A stretch of DNA of 64,000 bases. Source: Narcine bancroftii. Taxonomy: Eukaryota. Numbering within the stretch: the stretch's first letter is position 1; each line of letters begins with the position of its first letter. Location of the stretch: the NCBI RefSeq assembly GCF_036971445.1, contig NC_091479.1, positions 100,130,001 through 100,194,000 of the forward strand, given 5' to 3'. The notes beneath the pieces were generated by a model. It made no database searches and was not told where the DNA came from. It worked only from the letters and a program-made list of their open reading frames with translations. Positions 9,832 to 46,502 of the stretch are shown one piece after another. A program made the position numbers and the translations under genes.

Positions 9832-9839
9832 GTCTAGAG

Positions 9840-11733: not shown

Positions 11734-11877
11734 CTAAACTTCAGTTTCACCAAAATTGCCCTAATTTCAATGAAAATGCAGTTGTAGTGTTTACAGATAA
11801 ACTTACAAATTTAAATAAATTACAATATTTGCAAACCACTTGTTCTTTGCCACCAGTCATTCTCATCTCCCATGTAC

Positions 11878-12063
11878 CTTGGTAATTTTGATTGCAGATG
11901 GGGCTCCAGGAAATCCAGGGAGACAAGTTTTGAATGCACATATCTCGCTGAAGGGACCTCTTCCACATGCATTAATTCCAGCAACCCGGAATTTGTACGC
12001 AGTCCCTGGTAGGAGTTCTTGCTTTTTTAGCATACTGTAGTCTGGGATATTAGCACCTGCATC
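11878..12063 (-). CDS. HCFC2: HCF exon 22 (Fn3)
   Basis: [56 protein letters not shown]. Confidence 0.95.
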
Positions 12064-12799
12064 CTAAAAAAAAAATCATAGTTTAAATTCAACCTGGTTC
12101 CAATCTTTGCAGTGAAATGAGCCATTAGATCCAACTGTTTTCTGTCTTTGTAAAAACAATTAGTGACATTACGATCATCCATTTCCTAGGGCTCAGTAGA
12201 AAACTTTTGCTTCTGGGTAATTTGGTTTTAGATTTTCCACCACACTGCAATTTCTTGAGCAGTTTGTTTTTGCAGGAAGATGGAAGACCAGCCACAATGT
12301 TACTGATTGGGAGAGCAGACATGGGATGCTGGATCAAGAGTATGGGTTTAATCCTTGGTTTGGACTGATGAGGGGTGACCTCATTGAAATAGATAAGGGG
12401 ACTCAAAAGGCTAGATGTTGAGATGTTTCCACTGGTGGGAATAGGGGGAACCAAGCTACAAAGCCAGTCACTTTGCAAAGAATGAGGTGCATAAAGTCTT
12501 CTTCACACAAAGGGTAGTGAATCGCTGGAACTCTCAGCCGAGGATCATGGTGATGAGATCATTAGATACATTGACCTATCAATGGCATAAACATTTAATA
12601 GATTGATGAACTGAGGATTATGGGGAATAGGTAATAATGGCGAGTTTAATGTACATTGTACAATGTACATTTGCCTTATGTTCTTGTTAACTGCAGCTGA
12701 ACAGGTACTTGTAAAGAAAAATTTATAACAGCGCGTTAACATTTGATTTAAAAAGACAATAAAAGCATAAGATAGATGACATTCACATTTGACCTCATG

Positions 12800-13095
12800 C
12801 AAAAAAAAGAGAAAGTCCATGATTAGTGTACCAAGGGAAGATTCAATAGCCTGATCATTGTTGGAAAGAAACTGATCATGAATCCAGAGGTGCTGGTTTT
12901 CAGACTTCTGTACCTTCTGCCTGAAGGTAGCAGTGAAAAGGGGTTGTGAGCAGGGTGATGGTGGTCCTTTAGGATGTTGGCTGCCTTCTTGAGGCAGCAC
13001 CTTGTACAGAAGCCTGAGGTCGGTGCCTGTGTGGACCTCACTATGTTTGCTACTTTATGCAGGCCTGGGTACTTGCATTGTCAAACCAGGCTGCA
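12800..13095 (-). mobile_element. Rex1/Babar-type fragment
   Basis: AANILKDHHHPAHNPFSLLPSGRRYRSLKT. Confidence 0.75.
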
Positions 13096-13164
13096 ATACA
13101 GCATAGATCGTTAAATGGCAGGATTGGCTTGAAGGGCTGAGTGGCCTACCCCCTTCCCACTTTT

Positions 13165-14200
13165 TAAAATTTTATTTTTATTGGTTTGCAATAATACAAA
13201 AATTAAACAATTATATATTAAAATACAAATTACAAGAGAAAGGAAAAAAAAAACCCTTAATTCAAAACCCCAACCTCAATGCAAGGTTGGGAAAAAAAAA
13301 CTAACATGTGGGTATCAAGTGGCGACAACCTGGAAATAGAAAGCACAGCAGCCAAGTTCATAACAACCCTAAAACTTTAGATTGTGGTCATGGTCCATAA
13401 AGGGGCCCCATGTTTTTAGAAAATGAGTATTTGAATCTTTAATGGCATATCTAATTTTTTCTAAACTTAAACAAGACAATATAATATCATTTAACCATTG
13501 TGTGTGTGTGTGTGTGTGTGTTGTGGAGTATTGCCTTTCTATTTGATCAAAATTGCACGTCTGGCTATCAATGAAATAAGTGATAAAATTTGGTTTGCGT
13601 TGGAATCAGTAAAACATCATCTTAAAATGATCCAAAAAGAGGAAAAGGCAAAGTTCTAATTTTTCCTTGAGAATCACTGATAATGTTTGAAAATTATCTT
13701 TCCAAAATTTTTCTAAACTAGGGCAAGTTAAGAAAATGTGAATCAAAGAAGCCTCAGCAATTTTACATTTCTCACATAGATGATTTATATCAGAGTGTAA
13801 ACAAGACCATTTAAATTTAGACCTATGTACTCTATGGACCAACTTAAGTTGCAATAAGCAATGTTGTGCACAAAGGGAGGTTGTATTACAAATGGAATCC
13901 CAAACTTTATCAGAGAATGGAAGATTCAAATCCTGTTCCCAGTCTCTCTTGATCTTAACTAATGAGGCTATTCTTAAATCAAGCAATTTGTTATCAATCA
14001 ACCATATTGAATCTTTATGAGAAAGTTGTAAATCAAAAAGTAAATCAAGAATCAAGAATTTGGGGAAGTCAGGTATGAGACTGAACAAAATGTCTAAAAC
14101 TTGTAAATATCTAAAAACAATGAGCGTGTGGTAAGTTAAAAGGAAGCACAATGATTTCAAATAAAAATGTCTTTAAAATATTTAATACCCAATCGCTTTT
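13165..14200 (-). mobile_element. Older L1 3' fragment
   Basis: ORF2 C-terminus QLKLVHRVH...CEKCK...IHIFLTCP; decayed A-rich tail. Confidence 0.8.
13499..13521. repeat. (TG)n microsatellite
   Basis: About 11 TG units. Confidence 0.9.
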
Positions 14201-14607
14201 ACCTTTTTACTGATGGCAGGGGAAACACCCTCACTTAAATAAAGCTCATCTTCAAAAAGCTAAAAGGAATGGTGTTTCCCAATTTTTTATTATTATTGAC
14301 GGTCATTATTTGTCTTACTTCTTTTGTTACATTGTGATAATTTGGTTGACTGCCCATCATGGGTAGAAATAGAATAAAATTTTACAAAGATATTTGTTTG
14401 CTGGCAATTTTAGGGTCCTTTTTTTTTAATCTTCCTCTTTATACAAGTTAACTGATAATCCGACATTTAAACATAGCTTGAGAATATGGGCACAATTTAG
14501 AAGGTTTTTTGAATTTCAGAACTTTTCTCTTGCTAGCCTTATTATATCTAACCATCTTTTTCAACCTTCTTTGCAAGAGACTGGCTTTAATGACTGGCAT
14601 AGATTAG

Positions 14608-14832
14608 GTTTAAATTTTAATAGACATTTAGCACAGTAACAGGCCCTTTGGCCCATGAGCCCTTGCCATCCAATTAACCTACAACCTCTTGCATTTTGAA
14701 GGGTGGGAGGAAACTGGAGCACCCTGAGGAAACCCACATAGACATGAGGAGAACGCACCAACCTCTTACAGACAGAACTGGTTTCAAACTCGTCTTGATC
14801 ACTGATGTTGTAACAGTGTTGCACTAACTGTG
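14608..14832 (-). mobile_element. V-SINE
   Basis: Same family. Confidence 0.75.
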
Positions 14833-14920
14833 TCACCCTCTTGTGAATTGAACACCTCTTCTTCATTACAGTATAATAAAATCCTTGCAATAGTGTTCAT
14901 AGCCAGTGGAATTCACTCAC

Positions 14921-15058
14921 CTCTCCAAGGCTGCCCTCTGGTGGCAAGTGATAATGAGTTACCACAGTGCTAGTCCCTTTGATGATTCCAACATCATACC
15001 AGGGATTGCCTTCTCTCTTTGGAGTTACCTTGAGTTGTGAATAAGAATTTTCTTGTTT
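14921..15058 (-). CDS. HCFC2: HCF exon 21 (start of Fn3C)
   Basis: KQENSYSQLKVTPKREGNPWYDVGIIKGTSTVVTHYHLPPEGSLGE (W[FY]DVG motif). Confidence 0.92.
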
Positions 15059-15247
15059 CTGAAAAACAGTGACATCTGCTTTAGCACAAAAGACAAAACA
15101 GCCGTAGAATCAGACATCACTGAATTTACTTTTAAGAGCACAGATCCAGACGTTAGCTACTTACAATTTTCTATCACCAAGTTTGTCTTTCGAGCAAGAA
15201 TTAGATCATAGCATCCCCTCACATGAAGTGTCTATTATATAAACATC

Positions 15248-15865
15248 ACAAGATACAGGAGCAGAAGTAGGCCCATTGAGTCTGCTCCGCCATTCTAATC
15301 ATGAGCTGATTCTCCCACTCAGCCCCACTTCCCAGCTTTCTCTCCGTAACCCTTGATGCGCTGACTAATCAAATACCTGTCAATCTCTGCCTTATTTACA
15401 TCCTTGCTTCTACATCAGCCTGTGGCAACAAGTTCCACAGACTCACGCCTCTCTGACTGAAGGCATTTTCCACATCTCAGTTTTAAATTGACAGCTTTTT
15501 ATCCTGGAATCATGCCTTTTTGTTCTAGAATCCTCTCTCATGAGAAAAATCCCTTACCAATGAGTATAGTCCAAGAGTCGATAATCGCTCCTCGTCTACT
15601 AACCCTTTCATTCCTGGTATCGTTCTAGTAAATCTTCTCTGAACCCTCTCCAATGCCAGCATGTTTTTTTACTCAAATACTGCACCCACAACTGCACACA
15701 GTACTCCAAGTGACATCTCACCAGTGCTTTATAGAGTCTCAACATTACATCCCTGCTCTTGTATGCTATCCCTCTAGAAACAAATGCCAACATTGCATTT
15801 GCCTTCTTCACCACCAACCCAACCTGGTGGTCAACCTTTAGGGTATCCTGCACGAGGACTCCTAA
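15248..15865 (-). mobile_element. CR1-type LINE 3' fragment
   Basis: VVKKANAMLAFVSRGIAYKSRDVMLRLYKALVR.HLEYCVQ.W plus 3' tail. Confidence 0.88.
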
Positions 15866-15975
15866 AACATATCTAAATATCATGGAAGTATGTTTGTTCT
15901 CCATTGGCAGAATATGACCTATTGGCTCAGGGAAACTAATAAAATGCAGTGGAATTAGCAATAGTAACTATTTAC

Positions 15976-16061
15976 CCCATTTGCTACTGAATTACTGTTG
16001 GAGACTTCATTTGATGACACAGCTGCTGTGGAAGAGGATGATGGAACTGAACAGGCAGGAC
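15976..16061 (-). CDS. HCFC2: HCF exon 20
   Basis: SPACSVPSSSSTAAVSSNEVSNSNSVANG, compare HCF-1 EVANG; phase 1 to 0. Confidence 0.75.
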
Positions 16062-16569
16062 CTGGAAATAAAAGACCGACAAATTTATTTCATGTATGCC
16101 AAATGTCATTAAATCAGTCATTTATTGATTTTATTGACACCGAAATATTTAAATGATCAATGCAGCCCTCCTACATGAGGCAAAGATTCACATAGAACTA
16201 TAGCACAGTACAGGCCAATTGGCCTGAATATATTCCTACCTCGTAACTCTATTTTTCTTTCATCTGTGCACCTATTTAAGAGTCTCTTAAATGTATCTAA
16301 TGTTTCAGCCCCCACTACCAGGCACCCATAACACTGTGTAAAAATTTTTTTTACCCCAATGTCTACCCTAAAATTTCCTCCACTTTGAACAGATATCCTC
16401 TGGTATTTGCAATTCCCATCCAGGGAAAAAGGCACTAGTTGTCTACTTTATCTATCTAGATCTCTCAGAATCTTGTAGACCTTTATTAAGTCACCTCTCA
16501 TCCTTCTTCAGAGAGAAAAGCTCCAGGTCTGCTAACCTTGCACCTCCTCTCATCTCATCTCATTGACTG

Positions 16570-17410
16570 CATCCAGTGCTTCCGGTGCAGCCTCTTCTGA
16601 ATCAGTGAGATCAAACCCAGACGGGAGCCTTTTCACAGGGCGTCTACATTCTACTCTCACTAACTATACTGAGCTCCCAGTTGCACACCAATTCATCTCC
16701 CATTCCCACACCAACTGGGCTGTCCTGGACCTTCTCCAGTGCCAGAGTGAGGCCAAATGTAAACTAGTGGAACAATACCTACCGTTCTGCCTGGGCAAAC
16801 GACAATGGCATGAACATGAAATTTTCTAATTTCAGGTAACAAGCCCCCTCTTCTGTAGCACCTGCTCTTTCTCAACCTCCTCTTTTATTGTCCTTTTTCC
16901 ACACCCATTCTTATCCTGTCTCCTCTGGTTTCATCCCCCTTCACCCCTCTCTCCCCATTAGATTCTTGAGTTGTCCCCCCTCCTATCCAAACATTCCCAC
17001 TCCACAGCCCCACTCCCCCCCTCTAATCCCCACCCTCTGTTCCATCTGGTCTTTATTTACACCTCCATCAGCTTCCAGTACCAGTAACGTTTGTCTTGCA
17101 ATCACTCGTTCCATTCTGGGTAACTGACCTTCCTCCACCTAAGCCCTTGGTTTTTCGTGTCTCTCTCCCTCTGGACTCTACTGATCTACTGCCTCTGCCA
17201 TGCTTCACTGCTCCCTGATTCCCCAATCGCACATGGGGCCCCTGTCCCACCCAGTCCTCTTTTACACTGGCTTCTCTACAGTTTTCTACTCTTAATAGAG
17301 TTTTGGCTCAAAACATCAACCATTCTTTTTCTCCTATTAATGTTGCTCGACCCACTGAGTTCCTTCTGGAGAGTGTGTTTGGTTCCAGATTCAAGTACCT
17401 ACAGTCTCCT
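16570..17410 (+). mobile_element. Penelope-like element 3' part
   Basis: LPVAHQF.SHSH..AVLDLLQCQSEAKCKLVEQYL.F.LG resembles the PLE GIY-YIG C-terminus; pyrimidine-rich tail follows. Confidence 0.72.
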
Positions 17411-17583
17411 GTCGTGTTCATCAAGATATTCAAGTTACTGTGATGTATTTCTTCCAGTCCAACCTTGGTTTAACTGCTGAACATCACAGTTTATATAGAA
17501 GTGCAGACATCTGATCAAAATGAAAAAGACCGCAGAGGAAACACAAAAAGAATATGCATAATGTTTTAGTTGGTTAGACATAC

Positions 17584-17850
17584 TTAAAGTGGTAGATTGA
17601 TGAGCATCCACAGTACCAGTGACCTGGGATTGCAGACTGCTTTGTACACTTGTCTCCGTGGAAGTCATCATTACTGTTTGAGGAGTACTCGGTTGCACTG
17701 GAGGCTGCAGTGGATCCTCTTGTTTCACTGGTTTCTCTGGCATCTGAGGCACAAGCTGCTGGCAATGTTGTATGTGCTGAGAGGAGTCCACGTTCGGCAC
17801 CCCAGGTTCTGAGGCAGCATCTTCACTTGGAGATTTTACACTACTGCATG
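17584..17850 (-). CDS. HCFC2: HCF exon 19 (low complexity)
   Basis: ACSSVKSPSED...AHQSTTL; tag/gtatgt; phase 1 to 1. Confidence 0.75.
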
Positions 17851-17954
17851 CTAAAATATTAAACAAGCACTTCTGAAAAGATTCATCATTCCGAAATATT
17901 TAAGACACTCTGAAAAGTTGCGTTAAAACAGATTTGCTGCTACTGACTTCTAAG

Positions 17955-18530
17955 CTGGGAGGTGATGCTGCAGCTGTTTAAGGCATTGGTGAGGCCAGGT
18001 TTGGAGTACTGGGCTCAGTTCTGGTCTCCAAATTATAGAAAGGCTATAGATAAGGTGGAGAGGGTACAGAGAAGTTTTACAAGGATGTTGCTTGGCTTAC
18101 AGCATCTGGATTACAGGGAGAGATTAAGGAGACTGGGACTTTATTCATTGGAACATAGACGACTGAGAGGGGACTTGATAGAGGTATTTAAAATTATGAA
18201 AGGAATAGATAAACATAAACAGACACTTTCCCCTGAGGGCAGGGGAGGTAGGAACAAGAGGCCATGAGTTAAGGGTAAGGGGGAAACACTTTAGGAGAAA
18301 TATTAGAGGTGGCTTTTTCACTCAGCGAGTGGTGGCAGAATGGAATGAACTTCCGAATGAGATAGTTGCGTCAGGGTCCCTCTGTCATTTAAGAGAAGGT
18401 TGTACATCGAGGTGAGGGGGTTGGAGGGTTATTGGCAGTGAGCAGAAAGTTTGAGCTAGTGGAGTTGTTCCAGTGAACCGGTGCGGACTCGAAAGGCCGA
18501 CATGGCCTGTTTCCGCTCCGTAAATGGTTA
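17955..18530 (+). mobile_element. CR1-type LINE 3' fragment
   Basis: LQLFKALVRPGLEYWAQFWSP...LERRRLRGDLIEVFKIM-like. Confidence 0.88.
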
Positions 18531-18629
18531 TGCTGATTGCAACCCTTTCTTATTAGGTTGAGTCATTTTAAACTCACACATGTAAAGAATTAATGGCTTT
18601 AGATAATCAAAACAAGCATGGGCTTATTA

Positions 18630-19830
18630 GGGATCGTCAGTGTGATTTTGTGCAGGAGAGATCACATCTTATAACCTAGATTGACTTATTTTTGAAGCGA
18701 TCATGTAGATGACTGATGATCTTAGGGTCATTGATATGGTTTACATGAACTTTTGGTTCAACAAGGTTCCCTCATGGCAGGCTGATCCAAATGGTGAAGG
18801 CACATGGAATCAACTGAGACTTGACAAATTGGATCCAAAACTGCCGGCCAGAGAGAAAAGAGGGATAGTGGTGGAAGGGTGTTTTTCCTAGTGGTGTTCA
18901 ATGCAGATCAAATCTGTGACATCTATTATTTATGATAGGCAAAAATTGGAAGGGTTGTGGTTAGTGAAGAAACTTGTCAAAGGATACAGTGGAATACGGT
19001 TGAAAAAGAGGGCAGAGAAATGGCTGATGAAGTTTAATACAGGCAAGTGTGAGGGGCTACATTTTTGGAGGTCAAATGCAAGAAATATGTCATAAATGAC
19101 AGGATATCGAAGAGCACCAATGTACAGAGGGATCTTGAGATGCAATTGGACAGGGTGGTAATAGTACATTTGACTCCATCGGTCAAGACACGGAGTACAA
19201 AAGTTTTAGCTGTATAAAGCATTTGGAATATTGCATGCAATTCTGGTTGTCACATTACAGGAAGGAAGCTTTAGAGAGTGAAGCTCAGCAGGTTGTTGCC
19301 TGAATTGGAACACATTAGCTACCTGATGAAGCATGAAATGTGTCTTTATCTTTGCTATACAAAGTACATTGTTTGACCTGCTGAGTTTCTCCAGCATCGT
19401 GTTCTTACTGAGCTACAAAGAGAGGCTGGTCAAACTTGAATGGTCTTTTCTGGAATATTAGAGGCAGAGTGGCAACCTGACAGAAGAATTTAAAATTATG
19501 TTGAGGCACCAACAAGGTAGATAGGGAATGTACCCCCCCCCCAACCTAGGGATAATTGTCGAATTATAGAGAGAATTATAGAGAGAATTGATGCAAGATG
19601 AAAGGGGGGAAATTTAAAGAAGATTTGCAAGGCAAGTTTCTTTTTAAGCCTAGAGGTAGGAATCTAGAACAAGATGCTAGGGATGCAGTAGGCTCACTCG
19701 TAACCTCCAGGTGGCACTAAGAGAAAGACAAGGAACAATCAGGGAGTAGAGGGAGGATATGGACAGTGTGCAAGCAAATGGGATTAGTTTAAATTGGCAT
19801 CATGGTAATCATGTGGCCTGTTTCTGTGCT
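18630..19830 (+). mobile_element. Decayed CR1 LINE with inserted Penelope-type tail
   Basis: Fragments such as VIDMVYMNF..NKVP and AEKWLMKFNTGKCE. Confidence 0.7.
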
Positions 19831-20246
19831 ATCTATAATGGTATGTTTCTGTGCTATCTATAATGGTATGAACAGAATTCTTAAATAGCAATGCATACGT
19901 TCTTTACAGGCATACAATGTAATCAGCACTAATTTAATAGCAAGGGTAGAACTGCATCTAAAGTTAATGATAAATAATTATGTTTAGAGTACTATACACA
20001 CTTAATTCAAAACCCAGCATTCTTAAAGCAACATCTTCACATCCAATTCCATTAGTTTGCAGAATTAAACTAAAAAAAGTTTATAGATGCTCTACCTATC
20101 GAGATTCTTCACAAAAACACGTTTCTAACTCCAGGCTACACCCATTTATTTTGCTGCAACAAGTTAGTTATTTAGATGATTTTAAAAAAATACCTAAACA
20201 ATTACTGTCTATTCCACAATTACTTGTTTTGAGAGGTATTCCTTAC

Positions 20247-20637
20247 CTGTAGTTGTTGGTAATGAGGACACTGGAACATCTCCAGCAGCCATTTTGTGTT
20301 GAATGTTGTCCACTGGTTTTGCTTCAGCCAAAAAAGGCTCTGTTGCAGCGGTAAGGGGAAGCTGTTCAAGGTTTTGGCTCAGAGAGTCCTCGGGTTTTTC
20401 ACTCTCTGCTGTCTCCTGTGGGCTCTGGAAGGCCTCTGACTGATCAGGTTGCTGACTCTCGGCCAGTGGAGGGCCAGCTGCATTTTCCAAGTTCTTTACT
20501 GTCTGTTCAGATGAAGGCTGGGTCTCTGCACTGCCTGGATCTTGGGCAGAATCTGTAGCAGGTGCTACGTGTGACGAGCTTGAATCTGACACGGTTGAAC
20601 TACTGCTGGAAGTAATCTCTGAGCCTGCTGAGATGGC
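20247..20637 (-). CDS. HCFC2: HCF exon 18 (acidic, low complexity)
   Basis: Open S/E/Q/P-rich frame AISAGSE...SSLPTTT; cag/gtaagg; phases fit neighbouring exons. Confidence 0.8.
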
Positions 20638-21717
20638 CTGATGATTGGAAAGCAAAGAAATTAAGAATAAAAAGCACATGCCTGGTACAAAGTAATACAT
20701 TCAACCAGTTTCTGGCTTTTAGAAATACACAGTTACAAGTTATTCGGACAAGCAAAGGTATTTACCAAATTCCATTTTGCAATGAATAATCTAATGCTTA
20801 AAAAAAAAGAAGCAAAGAATTATGAATTAAATATCACCCAATTAAAAATAATGTCAGACCAGATATACTTACAAGGTATTCTCTGAGTCGGGAGTAGGTT
20901 TAAATTCCACAGAACCAACCCAAGCAGCTTTTACCATTCCAAGGCCAACTCCTCTCATCCCCAAGATCTTGTCTCCTCCAGCCTACACCACCACATGAAG
21001 ATGCTCGAGGATCAGTGGAATGCCCCCAAGGGACTGGAATCAGAAACTTCTGGCCTGACACTAACGAGGCTCAATCTCAAAATGGTCCTGGACAATTTAT
21101 CCATCACTGGCAGTTAAATCTAATCCTGGGAATAGAAATCCTCTCTGGTGCTCCTGAATAACTTTATGTTCCCTCCCCCCCACCCCACCCCACAGGGAGC
21201 CTGTATAATGTATCTTAATTCTATTTTATTCTAAATATTGGTGCGAGTTCTTTTCCTTGATAATTGGAATGTGACAACATTAAAGCAAACATTTATTCAA
21301 AATCCCTTGTCCCCTTGAGAAAGTAACCTTGAATCACCAGCAATTATGAGGTGAGTTGCGGGTCGTGTTGAATTTAACTGTTACCCAGAGAACTCTCATC
21401 TTCATCCCATCATAGTTATTTTTACTTTAATTTTAATTTAGAGATACAGTACAATAACAGGCCTTTCCAATCGACCAATCAACTTTTATGCCTTTGGAGC
21501 GTAGGAGGAAACCAGAGCACCTGGATCACGGGGAGAAAGTACAAACTCTTTACAAACAGCGAAGGTTTCAAACCCGACTCTTTGGTGCTGTAGTAGCAAG
21601 AAGTGCAAGATCTGCAAATCCCCCAAATATCCTTTTACATGTTGAACACAGGAAAATCTGTAAAAAGAGCAATGCTTATTGGTGCAGCATCTGAAGAGAA
21701 TCTCTTTTTTACCTTAC

Positions 21718-21878
21718 CTGCAGTGAAGGACCAGGAGTCGGTGTGGACTGGGTAACACTGGTGACTGCTCCAGTATGTGCTGCTGAGACGGTGGTGGCAG
21801 TATTTGTAGTTCCTGCAGTTGCTGTTTCTCCATGAACACTGTCCGGTAAACCATTGTTACTTGAGTCAGGTGGCTGAA
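21718..21878 (-). CDS. HCFC2: HCF exon 17 (PRO-like repeat 2)
   Basis: QPPDSS...HGETATAGTTNTATTVSA..AVTSVTQSTPTPGPSLQ, compare HCF-1 AVTTVTQSTPVPGPSVP. Confidence 0.87.
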
Positions 21879-21994
21879 CTGTGATAAACAAATTCCAACA
21901 GGGTAAAAAGCATAATGTGGGATAATGCTCCATATGTGAAATTGTGGCGTTTGTGTCGTGGTGGAAACAGATACATTAAGAAGCTAGAGATTAG

Positions 21995-22190
21995 TAAAAT
22001 GTTACAGCACCGTGGATTAAAATCCAGCGCTGTCTGTAAGGAGTATGTTTATTCTCCCCATGGGTCTGGTTTTCTCTGGGCGCTCCCACCTTTTGAAAAC
22101 ATATGGGGGTTGTTGGTTAATTAGGGTATTTGGGTGGCATGGGCTTGTGGGCCAAACGGCCTGATACTGTGCTGTACGTTTAAATTTAAA
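21995..22190 (+). mobile_element. V-SINE
   Basis: Same family; opposite copy at about 21430-21595 on the other side of exon 17. Confidence 0.72.
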
Positions 22191-23044
22191 GAAGCTTTTA
22201 CATAGACACATGAATATGCAGGGAATCAACGGATGCTTGTCATGTGCAAGCAGAATTTTAGTTTAATTTGGGCATCACGTTCAGTTCATACAGGTAGGAT
22301 GAAAGGCCTGTTCTGTGCAATCTTGTTTTATGTTCTAGTTGTGAGTCAACACCCCATTAAAACTAAGAATGCGAGGTGAAACCCATATTTTTTTTCTACA
22401 TCTACCATGGTCATGAAAACACTAAAATTAAATGTCCAAATGCAAAATAAGACTCACTCTTCTGTATTGATTGCATGTGAGGGGTTTATTATATTTCTAA
22501 TCATACCCAAACAGAACACAAGCAGAAATTCCTATAAAGTCCGCTTACCCAAAACCCCTCTTCCACTCAAGTACCTCGAATTTACAAATTTCCCTAAAGC
22601 CAACCTCATAAAAAGAGTTTTAGTTGGTTATAATATTTTATTAGGTTAATTTTTTTTGAATTACACTTCATGAAAATCCTTGGTATAGGTTTCAACATTT
22701 ACAACACTCTATAAATGTAAATTTACTGTTAGGTCAAATGTATTGTGTGTCCTTCAGCTGAGTGATGTGAATATTCACATCTGACATCTCTCATGACTGA
22801 TGTGCACTGCCTCCGTCTGGGATGGGATGTGGTGAAATTTTACGCCATACCAGTAAAATTCCAATTGAAAAGATTTTTAAAAACAATTGGTGGTACAGTC
22901 ACATTAACTAGCACACTGACGGTGGTGCCCCTACAGTTCCAGTACTTCGCATTCAGTCCTTATCTCCTGTGCTGTGTGATGGCTGCATGCTCTCTTTTTG
23001 ATCCTGTGCCCTATATCCCAAAGGCATGTGGGTTGGTACCTGAT

Positions 23045-23276
23045 ACATTTGGCTACTTGGAATTCTCTAACCAGGGAAGTGGTTGAAGCTGCCTCATTAA
23101 ACCTATTTAAAATTCGGTTAGATAAATTTTTACATGATAGAGGAATTAGGGATATGGGGAGAAGGCAGGTAGGTGGAGTTAGGTCATAAATTAGATCAGC
23201 CATGATCATATTGAATGGCGGAGCAGGCTCGATGGGCCATTTTTGGCCTACTCCTGTTCCTACTTCCTATGTTCCT
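23045..23276 (+). mobile_element. CR1 3' end
   Basis: WNSLTREVVEAASLNLFKIRLDKFL, tail CTCCTGTTCCTACTTCCTATGTTCCTA. Confidence 0.8.
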
Positions 23277-23369
23277 AAGTCTGGCTCCAAGAAGACAACA
23301 AGAGTTCACTGTCTGGTTATCATCTTTGTTTCAGCAGGTAATTTTAGCAAATTTACTTCTCAAATTGAG

Positions 23370-23560
23370 TGGCATGGTTAGCGCAACACTATTATAGCAT
23401 CAGCAACCTAGGTTCTAATCTCGCGCTCTATGTCAGGAGTCTGCACCATCCACCCCCAGTGTATGCGTGGTGCTCCCCAGGTGCTCTGGATTCCTCCCAC
23501 CCATCAAAATGTACAGGGTTGTAGGTTAATTTGGGTGTAATTGGACAGCAGGTGTTTAAA
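23370..23560 (+). mobile_element. V-SINE
   Basis: Same family. Confidence 0.72.
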
Positions 23561-23683
23561 CAGCCAGAATCAACTTCTACTTTGGTGTAAATATTTTTTT
23601 TAATTAAAATATTAATGATAACCATTGCTCTTTAAATAGAATGATTAATTCCACACACTGGACTTCTTGTTTAGTCTACTCAC

Positions 23684-23927
23684 TTTGATTCAGAGATATG
23701 TTGGCTGTGCTAGAGGTAGCTGTATTCGTGGTGTTTGTCTCGGTAGTTTCATGGGCTGGTTCTTCTGCAGCTTGAATTGTTGGTTGATCTGTGGTTTGGA
23801 TGCTATTCTCAGCAACAATTACTGCAGCTGCTGGTTGTTCTACAGCCGCCGGCACCTGAATGTCACTGGTGTGTGTAACCAAGCCTGTTACTCGAGGGGA
23901 AATTGCTTCTGATATCACAAACATGGG
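23684..23927 (-). CDS. HCFC2: HCF exon 16 (PRO-like repeat 1)
   Basis: ...AVEQPAAAVIVAENS...EEPAHETTETNTTNTATSSTANISLNQ; cag/gtgagt. Confidence 0.85.
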
Positions 23928-25154
23928 CTGTCAAACACAAAATACATACAGCAATAAAATATTAACATGATTACTTCAATGAATGTGTAAATATCAAGGA
24001 ATATTATAAAATAATCAAAATAAGGTGTAAAGAAAACTTCAAAACTTAGAGGAATACTAAAATCTTTGAACTTCAAATTCATTATTTAGATTATTTTCAG
24101 ATGAATGGAAACTGCAGAGGTAAAACAAACTATACCCTTATTTAATCCACAGGGGTATAACATGAGCAATTCTATTTAATGAACATTAATTAAAAACATT
24201 TCTCTTTTAAATAGAGAGATTAATTTCAAACACGTGGTTTTTGCTTAATCTATCTGCTTAGTTTCAGAAATGTATTTGCAACATTGAGGCACAACATATT
24301 AAAAAATTGCAAACATTAATGCCACATCATAAAACAGCCCATGGAGACTTTATACACCAAGCATGACAGAGCTTTGCAGATATATTTCTGGTAGTGTTTT
24401 TGTTTAAACATAAAAAGAATAGAAATTTGCAAGTGAGTTTCTTCCTCATCCCCCGAACAAATACTTGCAATAGATAAGAACAAGATTCTACCTCATATGT
24501 GACGAAAGTAGATAGAGGTAATAAGCACAGATGGAAGAGAAGGTTTTGTTTCTGAGGAAATTGGTTAAAGGTTGTGGGTATTAGACATTAAAATGGAGTT
24601 AAGGAACAAAAGAACAAAGGATTTAGAATCAATATGCTGGCTAACAGGAAACCAATGAACAAACACTGAAATGCTGGAGGGACTCAACAGGTCAGACCGA
24701 ATCCATGGATAGTATGGGAAGTCAACATTTTGAGTCGTGAATCTTTATTAATAAACCAAGAAAGTTGTAGCCAGCCCAATGTGCCGGTAGAAAAAAAACA
24801 AATTCACAAAGAAAAACCTGGAGTCTATTAGAAGTGTGCCAACCTGGACTTTAAGGAAAATCTTAAAGGTGAATCAGAAGAGTCGTGGTGGGTATCGTTG
24901 AGTCTGACAGCAAAAGAGATAATGGGAGAAGGTATTTCTCAAGGCTAGTAAGAGGAATGAAACACATGGTGGTGGTTGTAGTTTGGAGGTGGTGAGCGAA
25001 GGGAGAGGGTGAAAAGGAAGCAGAAGATGGAAGAGAGGAAGACAGAGACCATCAGTGCTGGAATCTGGAACAAAACAGAAAATTCAGTGGGTTGAGAAGC
25101 ACTTGTGGAGGCGAAGGAATTGTCAACATTTTGTTTGGAGAACCTGTAACAGGA

Positions 25155-25722
25155 TCAGAGCAGAGAGGGAAGACAGACAATATAAAGAGGAGAGGGGTAG
25201 GGGTTAAGTGGATGGAACAGAGGGGAAAGATAGCCAGTATAAAGAGGAGGGGGGGGGGGAAGGGGTGTAACAGAACACTGATCATCCGAGACTCTCATAT
25301 TCATGAAACAATATTAGATTTCAGATTTATTGTCAGAGTACATACATGACATCTTTTCTGCAGGCAAGGCAGAATTACCAATTATTGGTAGTGCAAAAAA
25401 AAAAAAAAAAATTTGTATAGATGAAATACTTGTCCTGCATAAGTATTGTTTGTTGGTGCATGTGTAATGTCCTGTTGTATGCCTGCGTGTTTCACACTGA
25501 GGACCAGAGAACATTGTTGCATCGGGTTGTACTTGTACAATCAGCTGACAATAAACTTGACTTGAGGACAGAGCAGAGAGGGACGGCAACTAGTACAAAG
25601 AGGAGAGGGGGAGGAGGTATCAGGACAGAGCAGAGAGGAAAGAGAGCCAGCATGAAGAGGAGAGGAAAAGGGTGAAAGACAGAGCAGAGAGGGAAGACAG
25701 CCAGTACAAAGAGGAGAGGGTG
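25155..25722. repeat. Purine-rich tandem repeat (about 50-60-bp unit) interrupted by LINE tail fragments
   Basis: Five copies of CAGAGCAGAGAGGGAAGACAGCCAGTA[TC]AAAGAGGAGAGG; insert at about 25265-25565. Confidence 0.75.
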
Positions 25723-26082
25723 CAGTGTGTAACAGGGGCTGGTTGGTGAGGAAAGTTGGAGGCAGATGGGGGAGCAGGAGAGATGAAGTAGGGAGGTAAA
25801 GGTAGGAGAACAGTAGATGGAAGAAGACAAGGAGAAAAGGGAAATGGAGTTGAGAAGGCAAAGACAGTTGCTGGAAGGTTAGAAGCGATAACACAAATTC
25901 TACCAGTGCTGGAAATAGATAAGAAAATGACAATGAACCATTAGGTCATAAGGGCAGAGGCATCAGTATGTGGTGTGTGGGTAGTAGATGGAAGAAATCG
26001 GGAAGGAGAGATAGTGTGATGGACCAAGATCTTGATTAAACCGTAAACTACAAATATTCAAAACAAACAGCCAATCAAATAC

Positions 26083-26303
26083 CTCAGTGTTAACTACAGA
26101 AGGACTTGAGACAATTCCTGTTGTAGCCATTAATGTTGCTGGTGCCACAGGCAAAGGATCAATTGCTGTATTAATCCCTTGGCTAGCCAGTGTTGTTACT
26201 CTGGTCAGAGCAGCGGCCGGTGTTGTGAAACTTGACGCAGGACTTGTTATGGCAGAGTGGGCAGTAGACACTGTAGCAGTCACAGTACCTAAGGAAGTAA
26301 CAC
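26083..26303 (-). CDS. HCFC2: HCF exon 15
   Basis: GVTSLGTVTATVST...TTLASQGINT...VVNTE, compare HCF-1 GVTTLGTVTGTVST; phase 1 to 0. Confidence 0.88.
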
Positions 26304-26632
26304 CTGCAAAGCAATAAACTATCAAGAGCAGCACACAATCTATAGTGATACACTTCTTAGATTTTTTGACACATCAGAAATTCAGTTGTTGAAATTCACA
26401 CACAAACAATAGAGGGATCTCCTTCACAATGTTTACATTTTATTTGAAAACATCTTTAAAACAAGGTTACAAACTTTGCTTAAAATAAAGATTCAGGCTG
26501 CAAATAAAATGCATTTAATTTTTGGTCCACTGATGTTACATTATGAGTAAATTTTCAAAATAATATTTGCATTCTGGAAGGTTACAAATGCTGTTGAGTG
26601 TTCAGTACAACACTCCGTGAAGCTTCAGGGGA

Positions 26633-26851
26633 AAATTTAAACTTAGACATACAGCATGGTAACTGGTCCTTCCTACCCATGAACCCATGCCACTCAATTA
26701 CACCCAATTAACCTACAAACCCCATATGTTTTTGAAGGTTGGGAGGAAACCGGAGGAAATCCATGCAGACATGGGGAGAACGAACAAACTCCTTACAAAT
26801 CGCAGCAGATTTAAAACCTGGTTGGTAGCACTGTAACTGCATAGCGCTAAC
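26633..26851 (-). mobile_element. V-SINE
   Basis: Same family. Confidence 0.75.
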
Positions 26852-27142
26852 AATGTTCTTCAGGTTTGATGCAGGCCCAAATCGGAGGTTTCCAGCGTGT
26901 CGAGGTGGCCAGTTATTTTGAGATGGGTGGGGTTGGAGCAGAAAAATGGAGGACCTCTTGGCTGATTCAAACAGTAGCTTTCTCAGGACCAGTCACCCTA
27001 ACGACCTCCCCACGGTGGCCCAGCCCCATTGATAATTAAATGATGTAGAAAGCAAAGTAAAAAAAAAATTCAACAAAATTTCCCAATTTGGACTCATCCT
27101 GCTTGTTCAGACCTGATGGTAGAAAGAAAATACAAAATAGGT

Positions 27143-27365
27143 AGCATGGTTGGCGTAGCGGTTAGCACACCTTTACAGCACGGGGGTTTGAATCCAGTGC
27201 TATTTGTAAGGAGTTTGTTCGTTCTCCCCGTGTCTTCGTGGGTTTTCTCCGGGGGCTCCTGTTTCCTCCCACTATAGGTTAATGGGGTGTAAATTGGGGG
27301 GTATGGACTCGTGGGCCAAAACGGCCTATTACCGTGTATAAGTCTAAATGTAAATTTTAAAAAAA
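27143..27365 (+). mobile_element. V-SINE
   Basis: Same family. Confidence 0.75.
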
Positions 27366-27719
27366 ATTATTACAAATGTCAATTGTCTGAGATAAGAGCC
27401 TGAAGATGAAAGTTGAAAAGGAATGCTTGGAGTATTACTACAATACAACCAGTTATGAATGGGCATGTATTACCTCCTAGCCGACACCTGACAGCAATCA
27501 TCATTTCAGAAACATCAATCAGGACCAAATTTTGAACAGTGATTCATCAGAATCTTAAAGCAAAGAATCTCATATCCATCTTTGGATCTGTTACACTTGC
27601 ATGCAATCAAATGGAGGTCACAGAGATTCAAAAATAAAATACATTCCTACCATGAATAAATCCATTTTACTACCTCAATTGCAAAAGAACTCAACAAATT
27701 ATATTTTTTAAAAATGTAC

Positions 27720-27861
27720 CTGTAGTTCCTTTCACTAGTAATGTTGTGACTGTAGGCTTGGTTGAAGACACAGTGACAGGTGTAACTAGTCTAACTCCAC
27801 TTACTGTTACTGGATTTCCACCAACAGTTCGTAGAATGGTACCAGGTGTTTTCAGAACAAC
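27720..27861 (-). CDS. HCFC2: HCF exon 14 (basic region)
   Basis: [47 protein letters not shown]. Confidence 0.92.
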
Positions 27862-28271
27862 CTAGAAAATCATATTTAAAAAAAAAATGCATTCATTTAG
27901 AAGATGCAAATATTACAAGCCAGGCCATGTTCCATCAAAAGGAGCTATCCCTTCAAACTGCTACTGCCCAATGCAGGTTCTCTCACAAGTGTTTTTGGAT
28001 CCAAGATTCAATTAAAAGTCAAAGAATTAAGCGGATTGTATGAATGACCATCTGAGCAAGCATCACCAGTGGCCAACACAAAGAGGACCCAGAATTGGAA
28101 TCAAATTATTTTCTCCTGAGCTTCAGGATACAGAAGGTAACTAACACAGCTTTGAATGCACCACGTAGTGTTTTCAGACTATGGAGTCAAGAAGAAACAA
28201 AGGCAAAGAGATATTTATAGCGAGAAAGATTGAGACGGTTATATTAAAAAACTGAACCAAATAGGTACTAC

Positions 28272-28408
28272 CTGTGTTACTCCAGGCTGGCCGGCGGTAA
28301 ATTTTGGCACGGCCGTTATGATCTTTGCCGGTGTTCCTGTTCCTGAGGTCACTACTTTTGTTGTAATGAGTGTAATTGGAGATTTCATACCAGGAGAAGC
28401 ATTCACAC
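28272..28408 (-). CDS. HCFC2: HCF exon 13 (basic region)
   Basis: [46 protein letters not shown]. Confidence 0.92.
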
Positions 28409-28976
28409 CTAGAAAAAAAACATATACATCACTGTTTATGATTTGTAAATTACACAAGACACTTTATTACCTGAAGTATTTAATATTTTGTAAACACAGA
28501 ATTCTTTACTTTAGATCACTGGCCATCTTTTTATTCCTTTTACGCTGATTTTTTAGATAAAAAATTAGAGCAGAAAGACATTCTTCCTTCTCTCTGTAAC
28601 TAAACAGAAATCAGTCCTGGGGAAGGAATTAGTTTTGCAATTTCACAACTACCAAGGCTTCAAGTTTTAGCAGGGATATTAACAATAAATATGCACAGTT
28701 TACTTTTAATATAACTCATTTTAAGAAGAAATTGGATGCTCTTTGACTTCACTAACAGATCATCTTTATGTGCCTTCATTCACCATCTATGTTATTTAAT
28801 CTAAGTCTAACTCAATTTATTTGAGCTCCACTAATGTGTGCCACCTCTCCTTCATTTGTCTATGTATCAAAGAGGTTATTGATTTTCCACTCAGACTCCT
28901 GTCACAAATGCTACATTGGCAACTTTAACCTTTTTTGAACAAGAGTGACATGTCCTTCAGCACTACCCATGTATTT

Positions 28977-30575
28977 AAAATTTTTTTTTCACACTATGAA
29001 CCACATTAATCAAAATACACACAAACATTTCCCTCTTGAATATACGGTGTCATTTTCTCCCCCTTTTTCCCCCCTCCCTTCCCTCCTTCCTTCCTACGCC
29101 CCTCCAAACCCATTAAACGTTCAACATATACAATACAATAAACCCATTAAACAATGTCATCACACAATGAAAAATAAACAAGAAAATTGTGTCATCTACT
29201 GTTACACTCTGGGTCAGTTCATTTCGTCTTCTTCTCATTCTATCATTTTAGGGGGGTGGAGGTCCGAGGCAAGCCCTCTCTGTTGTGTTCCATGTACGGT
29301 TCCCAAATTTGTACTTCATTTGTTCAAATGATAATAAATTATTTCCCAAAAAAACAATTTTCTATTCTTTTAATCCCTCTTCTCTCCCATTCTCTAAAGG
29401 AAAGGTTATCTATTGTGAAAGGGATTAGTTGATTTTGTGTCAATAATAATTTTGGTAGTTGGTAATTTGTATTTTTCCTTTCTACATGAATTTCCTCCAA
29501 ATGTTGAGCAGATGGTGCAGTACTGGTAAACTTCTATATTGCACCAGTTTTTCATCCCATTCATAAAGTATATGTTCTGATATCTTCTCCCCTATTTTAT
29601 CTAGCTCTATCCTGGTCCAATCTGGTTTTTCCCCTTGTTTGATAAAAATCTGAGATATCTTAATTGTGCTGCTCTATAATAATTCTTAAAGTTTGGTAGC
29701 TGCAAACCACCTTGTTTGTATAATTCTGTTAATTTATCTAGCGCTATCCTCGGTTTCCCCCCCCTTTCCATAAGAATTTCCTTATTATTTTCTTTAGCTC
29801 ATTGAAGAATTTCTCTGTTAAGGGAATTGGTAACGATTGAAATAGGTATTGTATCCTTGGGAAGACATTCATTTTAATTCAATTTAGCCTTCCTATCAGT
29901 GTTAGTGGTAAATCTTTCCAGTGTTCTAAGTCATCTTGTAGTTTCTTCATTAATGGCTGATAATTTAATTTGTATAGATTCATTGGAGCGACTTCATCCC
30001 TAACATCGAAGTACTCGAGATGGCAGAGGCCGACAGCATCGAATCCATGCTGCTGAAGATCCAACTGCTCAGGGTAGGTCACGTCTCCAGAATGGAGGAC
30101 CATCGCCTTCCCAAGATCGTGTCATATGGCGAGCTCTCCACTGGCCACCGTGACAGAGGTGCACCAAAGAAGAGGTACAAAGACTGCCTAAAGAAATCTC
30201 TTGGTGCCTGCGACATTGACCACCACCAGTGGGCTGATCTCGCCTCAAACCGTGCATCTTGGCGCCTCACAGTTCGGCGGGCAGCAACCTCCTTTGAAGA
30301 AGACCACCTCACTGACAAAAGGCAAAGGAGGAAAAACCCAACACCCAACCCCAACCAACCAATTTTCCCTTGCAACCGCTGCAACCGTGTCTGCCTGTCC
30401 CGCATCGGACTTGTCAGCCACAAACGAGCCTGCAGCTGACGTGGTCATTACCCCTCCATAAATCTTTGTCCGCGAAGCCAAGCCAAAGAAAGATCTCCCT
30501 GCTGGATCTATTATTTCCACCTCTATTTTGATTGGTACATTTTTATTGATTAATATAGCTACACCTCTGGCTTTT
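28977..30575 (-). mobile_element. Rearranged L1 with internal deletions and an embedded RTE
   Basis: L1 3' UTR and ORF2 pieces plus endonuclease piece KARGVAILI...DPAGR at 30494-30575; TSD CACTACCCATGTATTT at 28961-28976 and 30576-30591. Confidence 0.88.
29978..30493 (+). mobile_element. RTE-clade LINE 3' end
   Basis: HWSDFIPNIEVLE...GHVSRMEDHRLPKIV.YGEL...RYKDCLK...CNRCNRVCLSRIGLVSH, short 3' UTR ending in GAA-type tail. Confidence 0.88.
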
Positions 30576-32269
30576 CACTACCCATGTATTTTTGAAGGAA
30601 GATTATGGCCAGCACTTCCCACATATTCATTCTTTGCTTTTCTTATCAACCCAGGCCACATCCCATTTGATGTTAGTGTCATATCCACTTTAATATAATC
30701 AACGGTTCTTGGCCTACTCTTTACTAGCTCTTACCTAATGGCAGCTTCCTGGCAACCATTTATATAGTCACTTTACTAATATCCACTTCCTCAGTAAACC
30801 CTGATGTGAAGAACTCAACAATGCCCCTGGCTCTGCCAGTGAAACTTCACTTTAAATCTTCATTGCTCTCGCTGTTCCTAAAAGGTTTTATAGATGGCAT
30901 GACTGTAAAGTCCTTTAGAATTTTTTTTACTAGGATCTACCAGTATATTCATGTATTCATTGTCCCCAAATTTTCTTTCCATGTTATTTGGTTCACTTCA
31001 GCTCAATTCTAACTCATTATTATATTGACATTTGTCATAACCCTTAACTTCAACATTATCACACTTTCAAACTACTCATAATTTTGGTTGTTCTCCTATA
31101 TTCACCCCCCCCCCCCCCCCACCTTGTGGAGATGTACCTGTGCTATTCCCTAAAATATTGGCTATCCAGTTCTTTTAAAGTTATTTCAGAGAAGTGAGAA
31201 ATATACTGGGGCAGTGAAACAAGGCAGAGAATTTTCATTAAATAGGATGGTTTGGAGTGCATATCTACAAATCCTTAAAGTAGGATATCAATATGTTTAA
31301 AGAGGTACAGAATATGAGTGTTTTCTGTTTTTAGCCAAAGTACAGCAGGGATTCAATGGTTAGGGCATCGTTGGAGTTTCAGACGCCGTTCGGACCATAG
31401 TAACACAGCAGAGATGAGATGGTGTTGTGGAAGATAAAGGAATGTACAAGAATGTTGCCAGGAATAGTCATTTTTATCAATGAGAAAATACTGGATGAGC
31501 TAGGATTGCTTTGCTTGGACAAGAAAAGCAACTTAATTGAGGTATAAAGTTACGAGATGTGTAGGAAAATATGAAGAACATTTTTCCCTTAGCAGCAAGA
31601 TATAAGGGATGCAAATGTAACAATTGTTCGAAGGATTACAGATGAGGAAAGCTCTTCTATCAGGGATTGGTGAAGGATTTGAAACCATGGTCACAGAGGA
31701 CTCCCTTTCCTCTATTCATGACATTCTCCAGGAGTGTTGCTAAAATAGGCCTCAAAATGATCTTTTGAGAATTCCTTCCATCCATCACACAGCATCCTTG
31801 ACCTTCTGCCATTGAGAAGGAGGTGCAGGAGAATCAAAATTCAGACTTCTAGGCCAGGAAATAGCTTCCTCCTGCAGGCTGTGAGATTTTTGAATGGTGT
31901 TCTGTAACTTGGGGTCTCTTATAAATACAATGAGCAAGTTATCCCAAAATATTTTATACATCTATTTTATATATTTTTAAATGTAATTATTATGTGCTGT
32001 GTATTATGTTTGTCTGAGGGTGCACTGTGGTCCAGAGAAACACTGTTTCATCTGGTTGTGCATGTACAGTCAGATGATAATAAACTTGAACACTGCCTTA
32101 AAGTGCAGTAGAGTAGAAATATATACTTCAATAGTTCTGATCTGCTGGGCTGTCTTATCTATTCTTGCTTGAAAGGTTGGAATAGAAAAGGTAGTTTTTT
32201 GATAAAAGCAAACATGGTCCAAACAGCCTCCTCCTGCCTCAAAAGTTTTCTATGACCTTTGATTACCAA

Positions 32270-32865
32270 TACTGCACGTCAGCACCTCTACTTCCTCAGG
32301 AGATTGCAGAGGTTTGGTATGACATCAGAAACCCTGGCAAATTTCTACAGATGTTTGGTGGAAAGTGTGCTGACCAATTGCATCATGGTCTGGTAGGGGG
32401 ACTCCAATACTCCTGAGCACAAAACCCTCCAAAAGATAGTGGACACAGCCCAGGACATCACAGGCAAAACTCTCCCCACCATCGAGAACATCCTCAGGGA
32501 ATGTTGGCATCGGAGAGCAGCAGCAATCATCAAGGATCCACACCACCCAGAACACGCTCTGTTTTCACTGCTATCATCAGTGAAGAGGTCTCGGTGCCAC
32601 AAACCTCACAGCACCAGGTTCAGGAACACCTGCTACCCCTCCATCATAAGACTCGTCAATAACAAACTCAATCAGGACTCTTATTTTTGCACCTTACTTT
32701 TTAAAATTCTCTCTGTATTGCAGTTTGTCTTCATTTCTTTCTTTGTTTAAATGTGTACACTGTGTAGTTTTTTTGTGTGGTCATTCTGCCTGGCCTGCAG
32801 GAAAAAGAATCTCAGGGTTGTATGTGATGTCATGTCTTTACTCTGACAATAAATCTGAAATCTGA
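32270..32865 (+). mobile_element. Rex1/Babar-type LINE 3' end
   Basis: LANFYRCLVESVLTNCIMVW...IIKDPHHP.HALFSLL; tail AATAAATCTGAAATCTGA. Confidence 0.8.
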
Positions 32866-32868
32866 TAC

Positions 32869-33088
32869 CTGTAACATTGGGCTGAGCCATCAGTGCTGAA
32901 ACAGGGATGGTTTTTATGATGGTAGTTGCTCCGGTTTTGCTGCCGGTTGGCGAGACGCTGCCAAGACCCAGGATGGTTTGCTTCGTGCCTATTCCACCAG
33001 CTTGTGAGGTTGTGATGATCGTTGTTGGTTTACCATCCGCTGCTGTTACAAGCCTCACTATTGTCCCTGGAGGAAAGGGGCCCTTTGC
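32869..33088 (-). CDS. HCFC2: HCF exon 12 (basic region)
   Basis: [32 protein letters not shown]...[19 protein letters not shown]. Confidence 0.92.
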
Positions 33089-33204
33089 CTTCAGATTTGT
33101 TAGAAACAGTGACATTTAAACAGAAGTCTCGAATGGATATCACAAAATCAACACGTTTCTAATACTAAAAATGCCTCATGCATGGCATGGCTACTGCAAT
33201 AAAA

Positions 33205-33440
33205 AATTAAACATTTAAATTAAAGGACAGTTATAGGCCCTTTCAACCCACAGGCCTGTGCCACCAATTTACACCCAATTAACCTACACCCCTAGTACAC
33301 TTTGAAAGGTGGGTAGAAACCGGAGTCCTCAGGGAAAACCCACACAGACAAGGGGAGAATGTACAAACTCCTTGCAGATAGCGTGGGATTCGAACCCAGG
33401 TCCTAGTCGCTGTAACAGCATTGTGCTAACCATGCCGCCC
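33205..33440 (-). mobile_element. V-SINE
   Basis: Same family. Confidence 0.75.
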
Positions 33441-33811
33441 TTAAAGAACAGGCCATTAACTAGTAATATAGGGGGGGGGGGGTGGAAGGATCACCAAGAA
33501 TGCAAAAAGCCAAATACAAACAAAAAAAGGAAAAACATTTGGGAAAGATTAAAAAGGATACAGATGGTAAGGAAATACAGAGCAATAAGAACCTAAAATG
33601 TTGATTATCTAACATGAGGAAATCCTATTAAAGATGAGCTAAGCAGTCTGTAGAGCAATTCACCCATGTCATCAGTGTTGTATACAATCTAGGATAGGGA
33701 GAAATCAAATTACGATCTACATAACTAGAGGAAAATCAGGTTGGCAAATTGCATATTTAAAAAACACGGGGAGAAATGAAAGGTGGAATCACTAATAAAT
33801 CTGCTCTAGAC

Positions 33812-41239: not shown

Positions 41240-41310
41240 CACAAATATTTCATTTGTGGATCATCCTGCTCAAGAGACACGAAGTAAATGGAATACAAAA
41301 AAGGACTCAC

Positions 41311-46295: not shown

Positions 46296-46502
<207 letters not shown>

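Follow-up and report, generated by a model that had tools for sequence, protein, structure and literature searches.

One of the closest described systems to the locus analyzed here is the HCF-1PRO repeat of HCF-1, for which several requirements of OGT have been reported. The repeat comprises a cleavage region (P7-E10), a linker (positions 11-13) that depends little on its side chains, and T14-T24, the tract to which the TPRs bind (PMC4840301). Cleavage of the human repeat is inhibited by P8A and by C9A, and OGT binding is disfavoured by E10 itself (PMC4549301). T14 makes contacts with K396 and D431 of OGT and is important for cleavage, and the affinity is lower in T14A (PMC4840301); Kapuria 2018 (PMC6240873) reported that T14A still supports glycosylation, and that T14 is critical for cleavage. 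In the same study a CK2 sequence carrying Glu-10 and the Thr tract was cleaved, less efficiently and in exact register only; positions 3-13 are replaced in this chimera, and T14 is kept. A lone human repeat peptide is uncleaved, with high affinity being driven by repeats 1 and 2 together, while uncleavable repeats bind OGT very tightly, and other protein partners have been suggested for the repeat region (PMC11440498). HCF-1PRO repeats are said to sit in one large exon, and PMC4840301 uses this single exon as one of three arguments that they were inserted suddenly, possibly from a virus.

Repeat-like sequences have also been described in cartilaginous fish. Gudkova 2019 (PMC6582346) found that chimaera and shark HCF-2 retain the Basic, Acidic and NLS regions, and that both chimaera HCF proteins have two repeat-like sequences, degenerate in the case of both from HCF-2 and one from HCF-1. 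The OGT signal was inferred to predate the duplication, only repeat 1 of chimaera HCF-1 being certainly cleavable, and hagfish Fn3c sequences were not always found. Two degenerate repeats and a pre-duplication origin, which a sequence-only reading of the present locus had put forward, were thus already published in 2019. The same reading suggested that the natural variants could reveal the minimal OGT cleavage signal, and this was already defined experimentally in 2018 (PMC6240873).

The HCF gene and its two repeats

The window, by which we mean the whole stretch of 64,000 nucleotides that was analyzed, comes from the electric ray Narcine bancroftii. Exon structure was obtained by mapping onto it the protein P0001 (N. 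bancroftii XP_069760349.1, named 'host cell factor 1-like isoform X2'). The protein has the host cell factor domain order Kelch, Fn3n, Basic, two repeats, Acidic, Fn3c and NLS-like tail. The principal features are as follows.

6845..62954, minus strand: host cell factor gene of HCFC2 type; 1480 aa in 25 coding exons, which P0001 maps from 62954 to 6848
23684..23927, minus strand: exon 16; residues 859-939, with repeat 1 at the 3' end; AG/GT ends; 100% identical to P0001
23700..23777, minus strand: repeat 1; residues 909-934; E10 is E918, Glu codon 23750-23748; PAH-E-TTETN-TTNTAT-SSTAN
21718..21878, minus strand: exon 17; residues 940-993, with repeat 2 and the conserved AVTSVTQSTP stretch
21778..21855, minus strand: repeat 2; residues 948-973; E10 is E957, Glu codon 21828-21826; VHG-E-TATAG-TTNTAT-TVSA
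21793..21837, minus strand: 15-residue core of repeat 2, V954-T968; shared unchanged by chondrichthyan HCF-2, batoid HCF-1 and the hagfish fragment P0245
21724..21768, minus strand: Thr-rich anchor downstream of repeat 2; residues 977-991; can still be made out in bony HCF-1

Exons 16 and 17 have canonical splice ends and an in-phase junction, with an intron of 1.8 kb lying between them. Reading the minus strand gives both repeats with the cleavage glutamate retained, at the codons where the sequence-only reading had placed them, and in each repeat E10 is in exact register with the Thr tract. Repeat 1 retains P7, E10, T11, E13, T14, T16-T21, T24 and N26, with differences at A8, H9, T12, N15 and S22. 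Repeat 2 retains E10, T11 and G15-T22, and differs at V7, H8, G9, A12, T13, A14 and S24; the replacement of T14 by Ala did not feature in the earlier reading. That reading also described the CSNPPC stretch as lost, which does not hold for repeat 1, where P7 is kept. In place of P7-P8-C9 the cleavage region reads PAH in repeat 1 and VHG in repeat 2, and the two are therefore repeat-like homologs and not canonical HCF-1PRO members. Within the T14-T24 tract, repeat 1 has T14, T16, T17, T19, T21 and T24, and repeat 2 has G15-T22. The repeats are split over exons 16 and 17, and do not lie in one large exon as reported for the HCF-1PRO array.

The repeats are flanked by regions of opposite charge, the Basic region (residues 389-858) having 26 K+R against 3 D+E, and the Acidic region (residues 994-1250) 8 K+R against 31 D+E. 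The Ser/Thr content of exon 17 is 35%, and the repeat region is expected to be disordered. Searching Pfam with single exons gave matches to Kelch_HCF and fn3 with scores below the curated cut-offs, since single exons are domain fragments, and no family for exon 16 or exon 17. HCF of the Drosophila type is cleaved by Taspase 1, with the site pattern Q[FILV]D. This pattern had no match in 7/7 proteins scanned, including the window protein and a scorpion HCF, in a scan that had no positive control.

Several other features lie in the window. An alternative exon of 22 codons (37110-37175, minus strand), within the Basic region, is present in isoform X1 (P0254) and not in X2. A 339-nt copy of exon 9 (41185-41523) is found at 43035-43373 on the minus strand, positioned between exons 7 and 8; it is 97% identical with intact AG/GT ends, and probably arose by local duplication in the recent past or through an error of assembly. 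If spliced in there it would shift the frame, because exon 9 is phase-asymmetric. Intron 1 contains an open frame of 616 codons (55616-57463, minus strand), with related fragments near 52015-53047 and 29342-30121, all of which we take to resemble LINE reverse transcriptase. A convergent plus-strand gene is represented by two exons (260-339 and 2937-2969), ending in ...ISGVQPIQFS-stop, which resemble the 3' end of NFYB. HCFC2 and NFYB are adjacent in mammals. Neither the PDB nor the Atlas search identified the putative NFYB exon (best Atlas score 0.84, uninformative), and a passage of PMC6418173 lists both HCFC2 and NFYB with no explicit statement of synteny. At the C-terminus of P0001 (6845-9207, minus strand) a KR...KKxK tail aligns with the tail of Mobula HCF-1 and is lacking from rat HCF-2. 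This agrees with the NLS retention described for HCF-2 of cartilaginous fish (PMC6582346).

Motif match, conservation and ancestry

In the six frames of the 64-kb window there are two matches to TT[NH]TA[TS]; these are the two repeats, and there are no others. We scored the repeats with a weight matrix for positions 10-24 derived from 320 unique bony HCF-1 repeats, the training pattern of which fixes E10, T16, T17 and T19. Repeat 1 scores 24.7 bits and repeat 2 scores 10.4 bits, and no shuffle of residues 389-1253 reached 10.4 bits (0/1000 global, 0/1000 block). With the matrix extended to the full 26 positions, the score of repeat 2 falls to -28.5 bits, a value matched by 2/1000 and 3/1000 shuffles, and its N-terminal half is therefore unlike that of a canonical repeat. 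A search of the PDB with exon 16 returned only the HCF-1 peptides of 4N3C and 4N3B, at non-significant E values of 0.21 and 0.43, and with exon 17 gave no matches. We regard homology of both motifs to HCF-1PRO as practically certain.

The homolog search returned 17 proteins, all chondrichthyan, of which 14 were aligned (one per species, three isoforms dropped). For the cores E918-T929 and E957-T968, fixed beforehand, 24/24 columns are invariant in the 14 species. Callorhinchus (P0017) is included, and both of its cores are the same as those of the window. Conservation of E-x5-TTNTAT across chondrichthyan orthologs, raised in the sequence-only reading, is thus borne out in 14/14. In wider stretches, chosen post hoc, 20/21 (E914-N934) and 20/20 (S953-A972) columns are invariant. 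The corresponding values elsewhere are 14/55 in exon 16 upstream of the repeat, 10/18 between the repeats and 26/237 in the acidic region. Conservation is not specific to the repeats, as the Basic region has 251/324 invariant columns, with runs of 17 of 17, and the exon 17 tail has 16/21. Fisher tests (40/41 repeat columns versus 14/55, 26/237 and 251/324) use the post hoc stretches and non-independent columns, and are descriptive.

Comparison of the paralogs supports assignment of the window protein as an HCF-2 (HCFC2) ortholog. The tree has 36 rows (9 from the window clade, 2 Mobula HCF-1, 13 of the 100 bony HCF-1, 10 of the 86 tetrapod HCF-2 and 2 invertebrate HCFs as outgroups), the HCF-2 side being tetrapod only. 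The window clade joins bony HCF-2, on a long branch, with support of 94/94, slightly below the support threshold, and Mobula HCF-1b groups with bony HCF-1 with support of 97/92. Names given to P0001-P0017 are mixed across species, either 'HCF-1-like' or 'HCF-2', and the eight of these that were placed in the tree all fall in one clade with HCF-2. Over Kelch and Fn3n, HCF-1 shares 83-85% raw identity with the window protein and tetrapod HCF-2 shares 70-73%, which accounts for the NCBI label 'HCF-1-like'. We reject the HCF-1 orthology implied by that name, as the tree joins the window clade to HCF-2. A duplication confined to chondrichthyans is rejected by a p-AU of 0.0007 for the union of the window clade with Mobula HCF-1. 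P0125 had been a candidate chimaera HCF-1, and was discarded as such because it falls in the window clade.

The pair of repeats recurs outside HCF-2. HCF-1 of Mobula hypostoma, M. birostris, Hypanus and Hemitrygon has CSNPPH-E-TSETN-TTNTAT followed by VHG-E-TATAG-TTNTAT. In the hagfish Eptatretus burgeri we find CQNPPH-E-TSQTG-TTNTAS and VHG-E-TATAG-TTNTAT within a Kelch-less HCF fragment of 438 aa (P0245, UniRef100_A0A8C4NCV9) that is 47% identical to residues 651-997 of P0001. The E-to-E spacing is 39 residues in chondrichthyan HCF-2, batoid HCF-1 and hagfish. When the hagfish sequence is aligned with two from HCF-2 and two from HCF-1, five in all, 114/404 columns are invariant; the longest invariant run, of 15, is the repeat 2 core, and the next is 8. 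Contamination as the source of the hagfish record is rejected, given identities of only 47% and 40% to ray HCF-2 and HCF-1 in the sequences compared. A phmmer search of 1.84 billion representatives with exon 17 returned two proteins, skate HCF-2 and the hagfish fragment. No lamprey, invertebrate or viral match was obtained with this short, low-complexity query, which missed batoid HCF-1 too, and the absence of further matches is weak evidence. The repeat motif was not found in the two invertebrate HCFs scanned.

The presence of the pair in both jawed-vertebrate paralogs and in hagfish, together with the p-AU value above, supports the proposed origin before the HCFC1/HCFC2 split, as published in 2019. 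By parsimony, repeat 2 would be an old fixed variant and not a decayed copy, while HCF-2 repeat 1 would have lost ancestral C4, N6 and P8. The earlier description 'degenerate' would then suit repeat 1 of HCF-2, where these residues are lost compared with hagfish and HCF-1, and would not suit repeat 2. His9 looks ancestral in a sample whose cartilaginous-fish HCF-1 is all from batoids and whose jawless fish is the hagfish.

Bony vertebrates present a different picture. Our set of 100 named bony HCF-1 proteins counts isoforms, and leaves out three records without a name as well as the Mobula and invertebrate rows. Repeats number 3-15 (median 7) in 99/100 of these, giving 733 in total, with frequencies of 0.91 for P7, 0.92 for P8, 0.90 for C9 and 0.99 for T14 (728/733). 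A14 occurs in 0/733, as do each of A8, V7, H8 and G9, and H9 in 5/733. Some bony repeats tolerate His9, since three geckos, a skink and a moray eel each have one PPH-E repeat in their HCF-1 (P0043, P0045, P0053, P0054, P0060). The signature of repeat 2 is found in 0/100 bony HCF-1 proteins. The downstream anchor AVT.VTQ is kept in 89/100, and TT[NH]T lies between the last repeat and the anchor in 0/89 of these. The single repeat 1 of Mobula HCF-1 has an upstream flank in common with the first bony repeat and a downstream flank in common with the last tetrapod repeat. We infer that the bony array grew by amplification of repeat 1 within its exon, intron positions being those of the window only. 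TT[NH]T is found in 0/86 tetrapod HCF-2 proteins, tetrapods being the only bony vertebrates in the HCF-2 set. These comparisons show many copies of repeat-1 type and a decayed repeat 2 in bony HCF-1, and loss in tetrapod HCF-2.

OGT cleavage and docking as candidate explanations

The reading that we favour, at a little below an even chance, is that the motifs are a retained ancestral vertebrate proteolysis region in which repeat 1 would be slowly cut and repeat 2 would act as an uncleaved OGT contact. The two-unit cassette on adjacent exons, with its E-to-E spacing of 39 residues, would be the ancestral vertebrate form. Both TTNTAT tracts would be bound by the asparagine ladder within OGT's TPR domain, and by analogy with the human repeats the two-repeat cassette very probably binds OGT. 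Repeat 1, in which P7, E10 and T14 are kept in register, would become glycosylated on E918 and then be cut, slowly because of A8 and H9. That cleavage at E918 would be measurable is a finely balanced expectation, tipping slightly towards the negative. Repeat 2 would be uncut or hardly cut because it has A14 and lacks P7, P8 and C9, and cleavage at E957 is rated doubtful. As a second contact it could raise the residence time of OGT, and this would aid both cleavage of repeat 1 and O-GlcNAcylation of the Ser/Thr-rich surroundings. Several points stand against this explanation. With P8A and C9A being inhibitory in the human repeat, A8 and H9 may mean that repeat 1 escapes cutting altogether. The weakened OGT binding of T14A makes repeat 2 a less convincing tether, and the OGT model does not account for the fixity of repeat 2 at positions 7-9 and 11-13, of low reported OGT need. 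Invariance by itself is also not specific, as the Basic region shows, and Gudkova 2019 regarded only repeat 1 of chimaera HCF-1 as certainly cleavable (PMC6582346).

Under a first alternative, neither motif would be cut in chondrichthyan HCF-2. Both would be OGT docks, HCF-2 would be single-chain, recruiting OGT or being glycosylated by it, and only HCF-1 repeat 1 would be cut. This is unlikely, though it carries some weight: HCF-2 repeat 1 lacks the C4, N6 and P8 common to hagfish and HCF-1, cleavage is inhibited by P8A (PMC4549301), and uncleavable repeats bind OGT very tightly (PMC11440498). However, E10 disfavours OGT binding (PMC4549301), so that a pure tether should lose it, whereas both glutamates are invariant, and the CK2 chimera is cut without PPC (PMC6240873). 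The opposite proposal is that cleavage works at both motifs, alanine scans of the human repeat having understated what position 14 and the cleavage region tolerate. Each motif keeps E10 exactly in register with its Thr tract, and register and Thr tract were what cleavage chiefly needed in PMC6240873; E957 is also unchanged as far back as hagfish. Yet the CK2 chimera kept T14, which is critical for cleavage (PMC6240873, PMC4840301), and with A14 in 0/733 bony repeats we consider cleavage of both improbable.

The constraint on repeat 2 might instead have nothing to do with OGT, and reflect another protein partner or a nucleotide-level function such as a splicing element of exon 17. This would suit the identity of 15/15 residues from hagfish to both paralogs, including positions of little OGT need, as well as the other partners suggested for the repeat region (PMC11440498). 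But repeat 2 keeps the OGT-contact pattern G15-T22 with E10 at the distance found in the human repeat, and we give this possibility little credence. The motifs could, finally, resemble the repeat by chance, in low-complexity sequence rich in Thr, or be remnants without function that decay after the duplication. The non-significant PDB matches, the lack of a Pfam family for either exon and the Ser/Thr-rich composition of exon 17 are all compatible with that. We nevertheless reject a chance match, in view of 0/1000 shuffles under two null models and recurrence in paralogs and hagfish. Invariance in 14 species, and a location that corresponds to that of the bony repeats within the protein, also make chance or decay very improbable.

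Building on the favoured reading of a retained proteolysis region, we tentatively suggest a history for it, as a possibility somewhat short of even. OGT-directed HCF processing would have begun before the jawless/jawed split as a two-exon cassette, comprising a cleavable repeat of His9 type and a fixed uncleaved repeat. Cartilaginous fish would keep the cassette in both paralogs, bony HCF-1 would have exchanged the helper for tandem amplification of repeat 1, and tetrapod HCF-2 would have lost both. In such a cassette the fixed repeat 2 might hold OGT or a second partner, a suggestion we advance with the same reserve. If the cassette is ancestral, the one-exon array would be derived and one of the three arguments for sudden insertion (PMC4840301) would fall; repeat 2 would be an OGT ligand occurring in nature, with E10 present but cleavage avoided. 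Hagfish and batoid HCF-1 repeat 1 (PPH-E), HCF-2 repeat 1 (PAH-E) and repeat 2 (VHG-E, A14) are natural test substrates. They bear on whether binding came before cutting, whether a two-unit cassette is ancestral, and whether the single exon with multiple repeats arose by later amplification.

Comparison with known systems

The primary finding adds one more species, an electric ray, to a published observation. The chimaera HCF-2 of PMC6582346 is alike in having two repeat-like sequences in a long HCF-2 with Basic, Acidic and NLS regions. What usefully extends it is the cassette in hagfish, a repeat 2 that is fixed and has Ala14, and a layout over two exons. Relative to the available text of PMC6582346, the additions here are invariance in 14 species, the 39-residue spacing, the division between two exons, A14 and the hagfish repeats; Fig. 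1B, 9B and S10 of that paper may show part of this, for example that repeat 2 is the same in both chimaera paralogs. A literature search on hagfish, lamprey or degenerate repeats, with subscription journals mostly outside its scope, led only to Gudkova 2019, Kapuria 2016 and one review, and the pair in batoid HCF-1 and hagfish was not found in print.

Compared with the canonical bony HCF-1PRO repeat (human repeat 2, 4N3C/4N3B), the repeats of the window are alike at E10, T11 and T16-T21 in a gap-free register, and likewise lie between the Basic and Acidic regions. Canonical repeats are present in 3-15 copies, reportedly in one large exon (PMC4840301), whereas the window has two unlike copies in two exons. 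The chimera CK2(Glu-10)-Thr-rich (PMC6240873) resembles the window repeats in having the glutamate in register without PPC, but it is engineered, has the full human T14-T24 tract, and was shown to be cleaved. The closest counterpart to the role proposed for repeat 2 is the Region II cleavage enhancer element (CEE) of HCF-1 (Bhuiyan 2015, PMC4549301), a Ser/Thr-rich site in an adjacent exon that binds the OGT TPR domain, is itself uncleaved and enhances cleavage. The CEE is upstream and is not repeat-like, whereas repeat 2 is downstream and is a strictly fixed homolog of the repeat.
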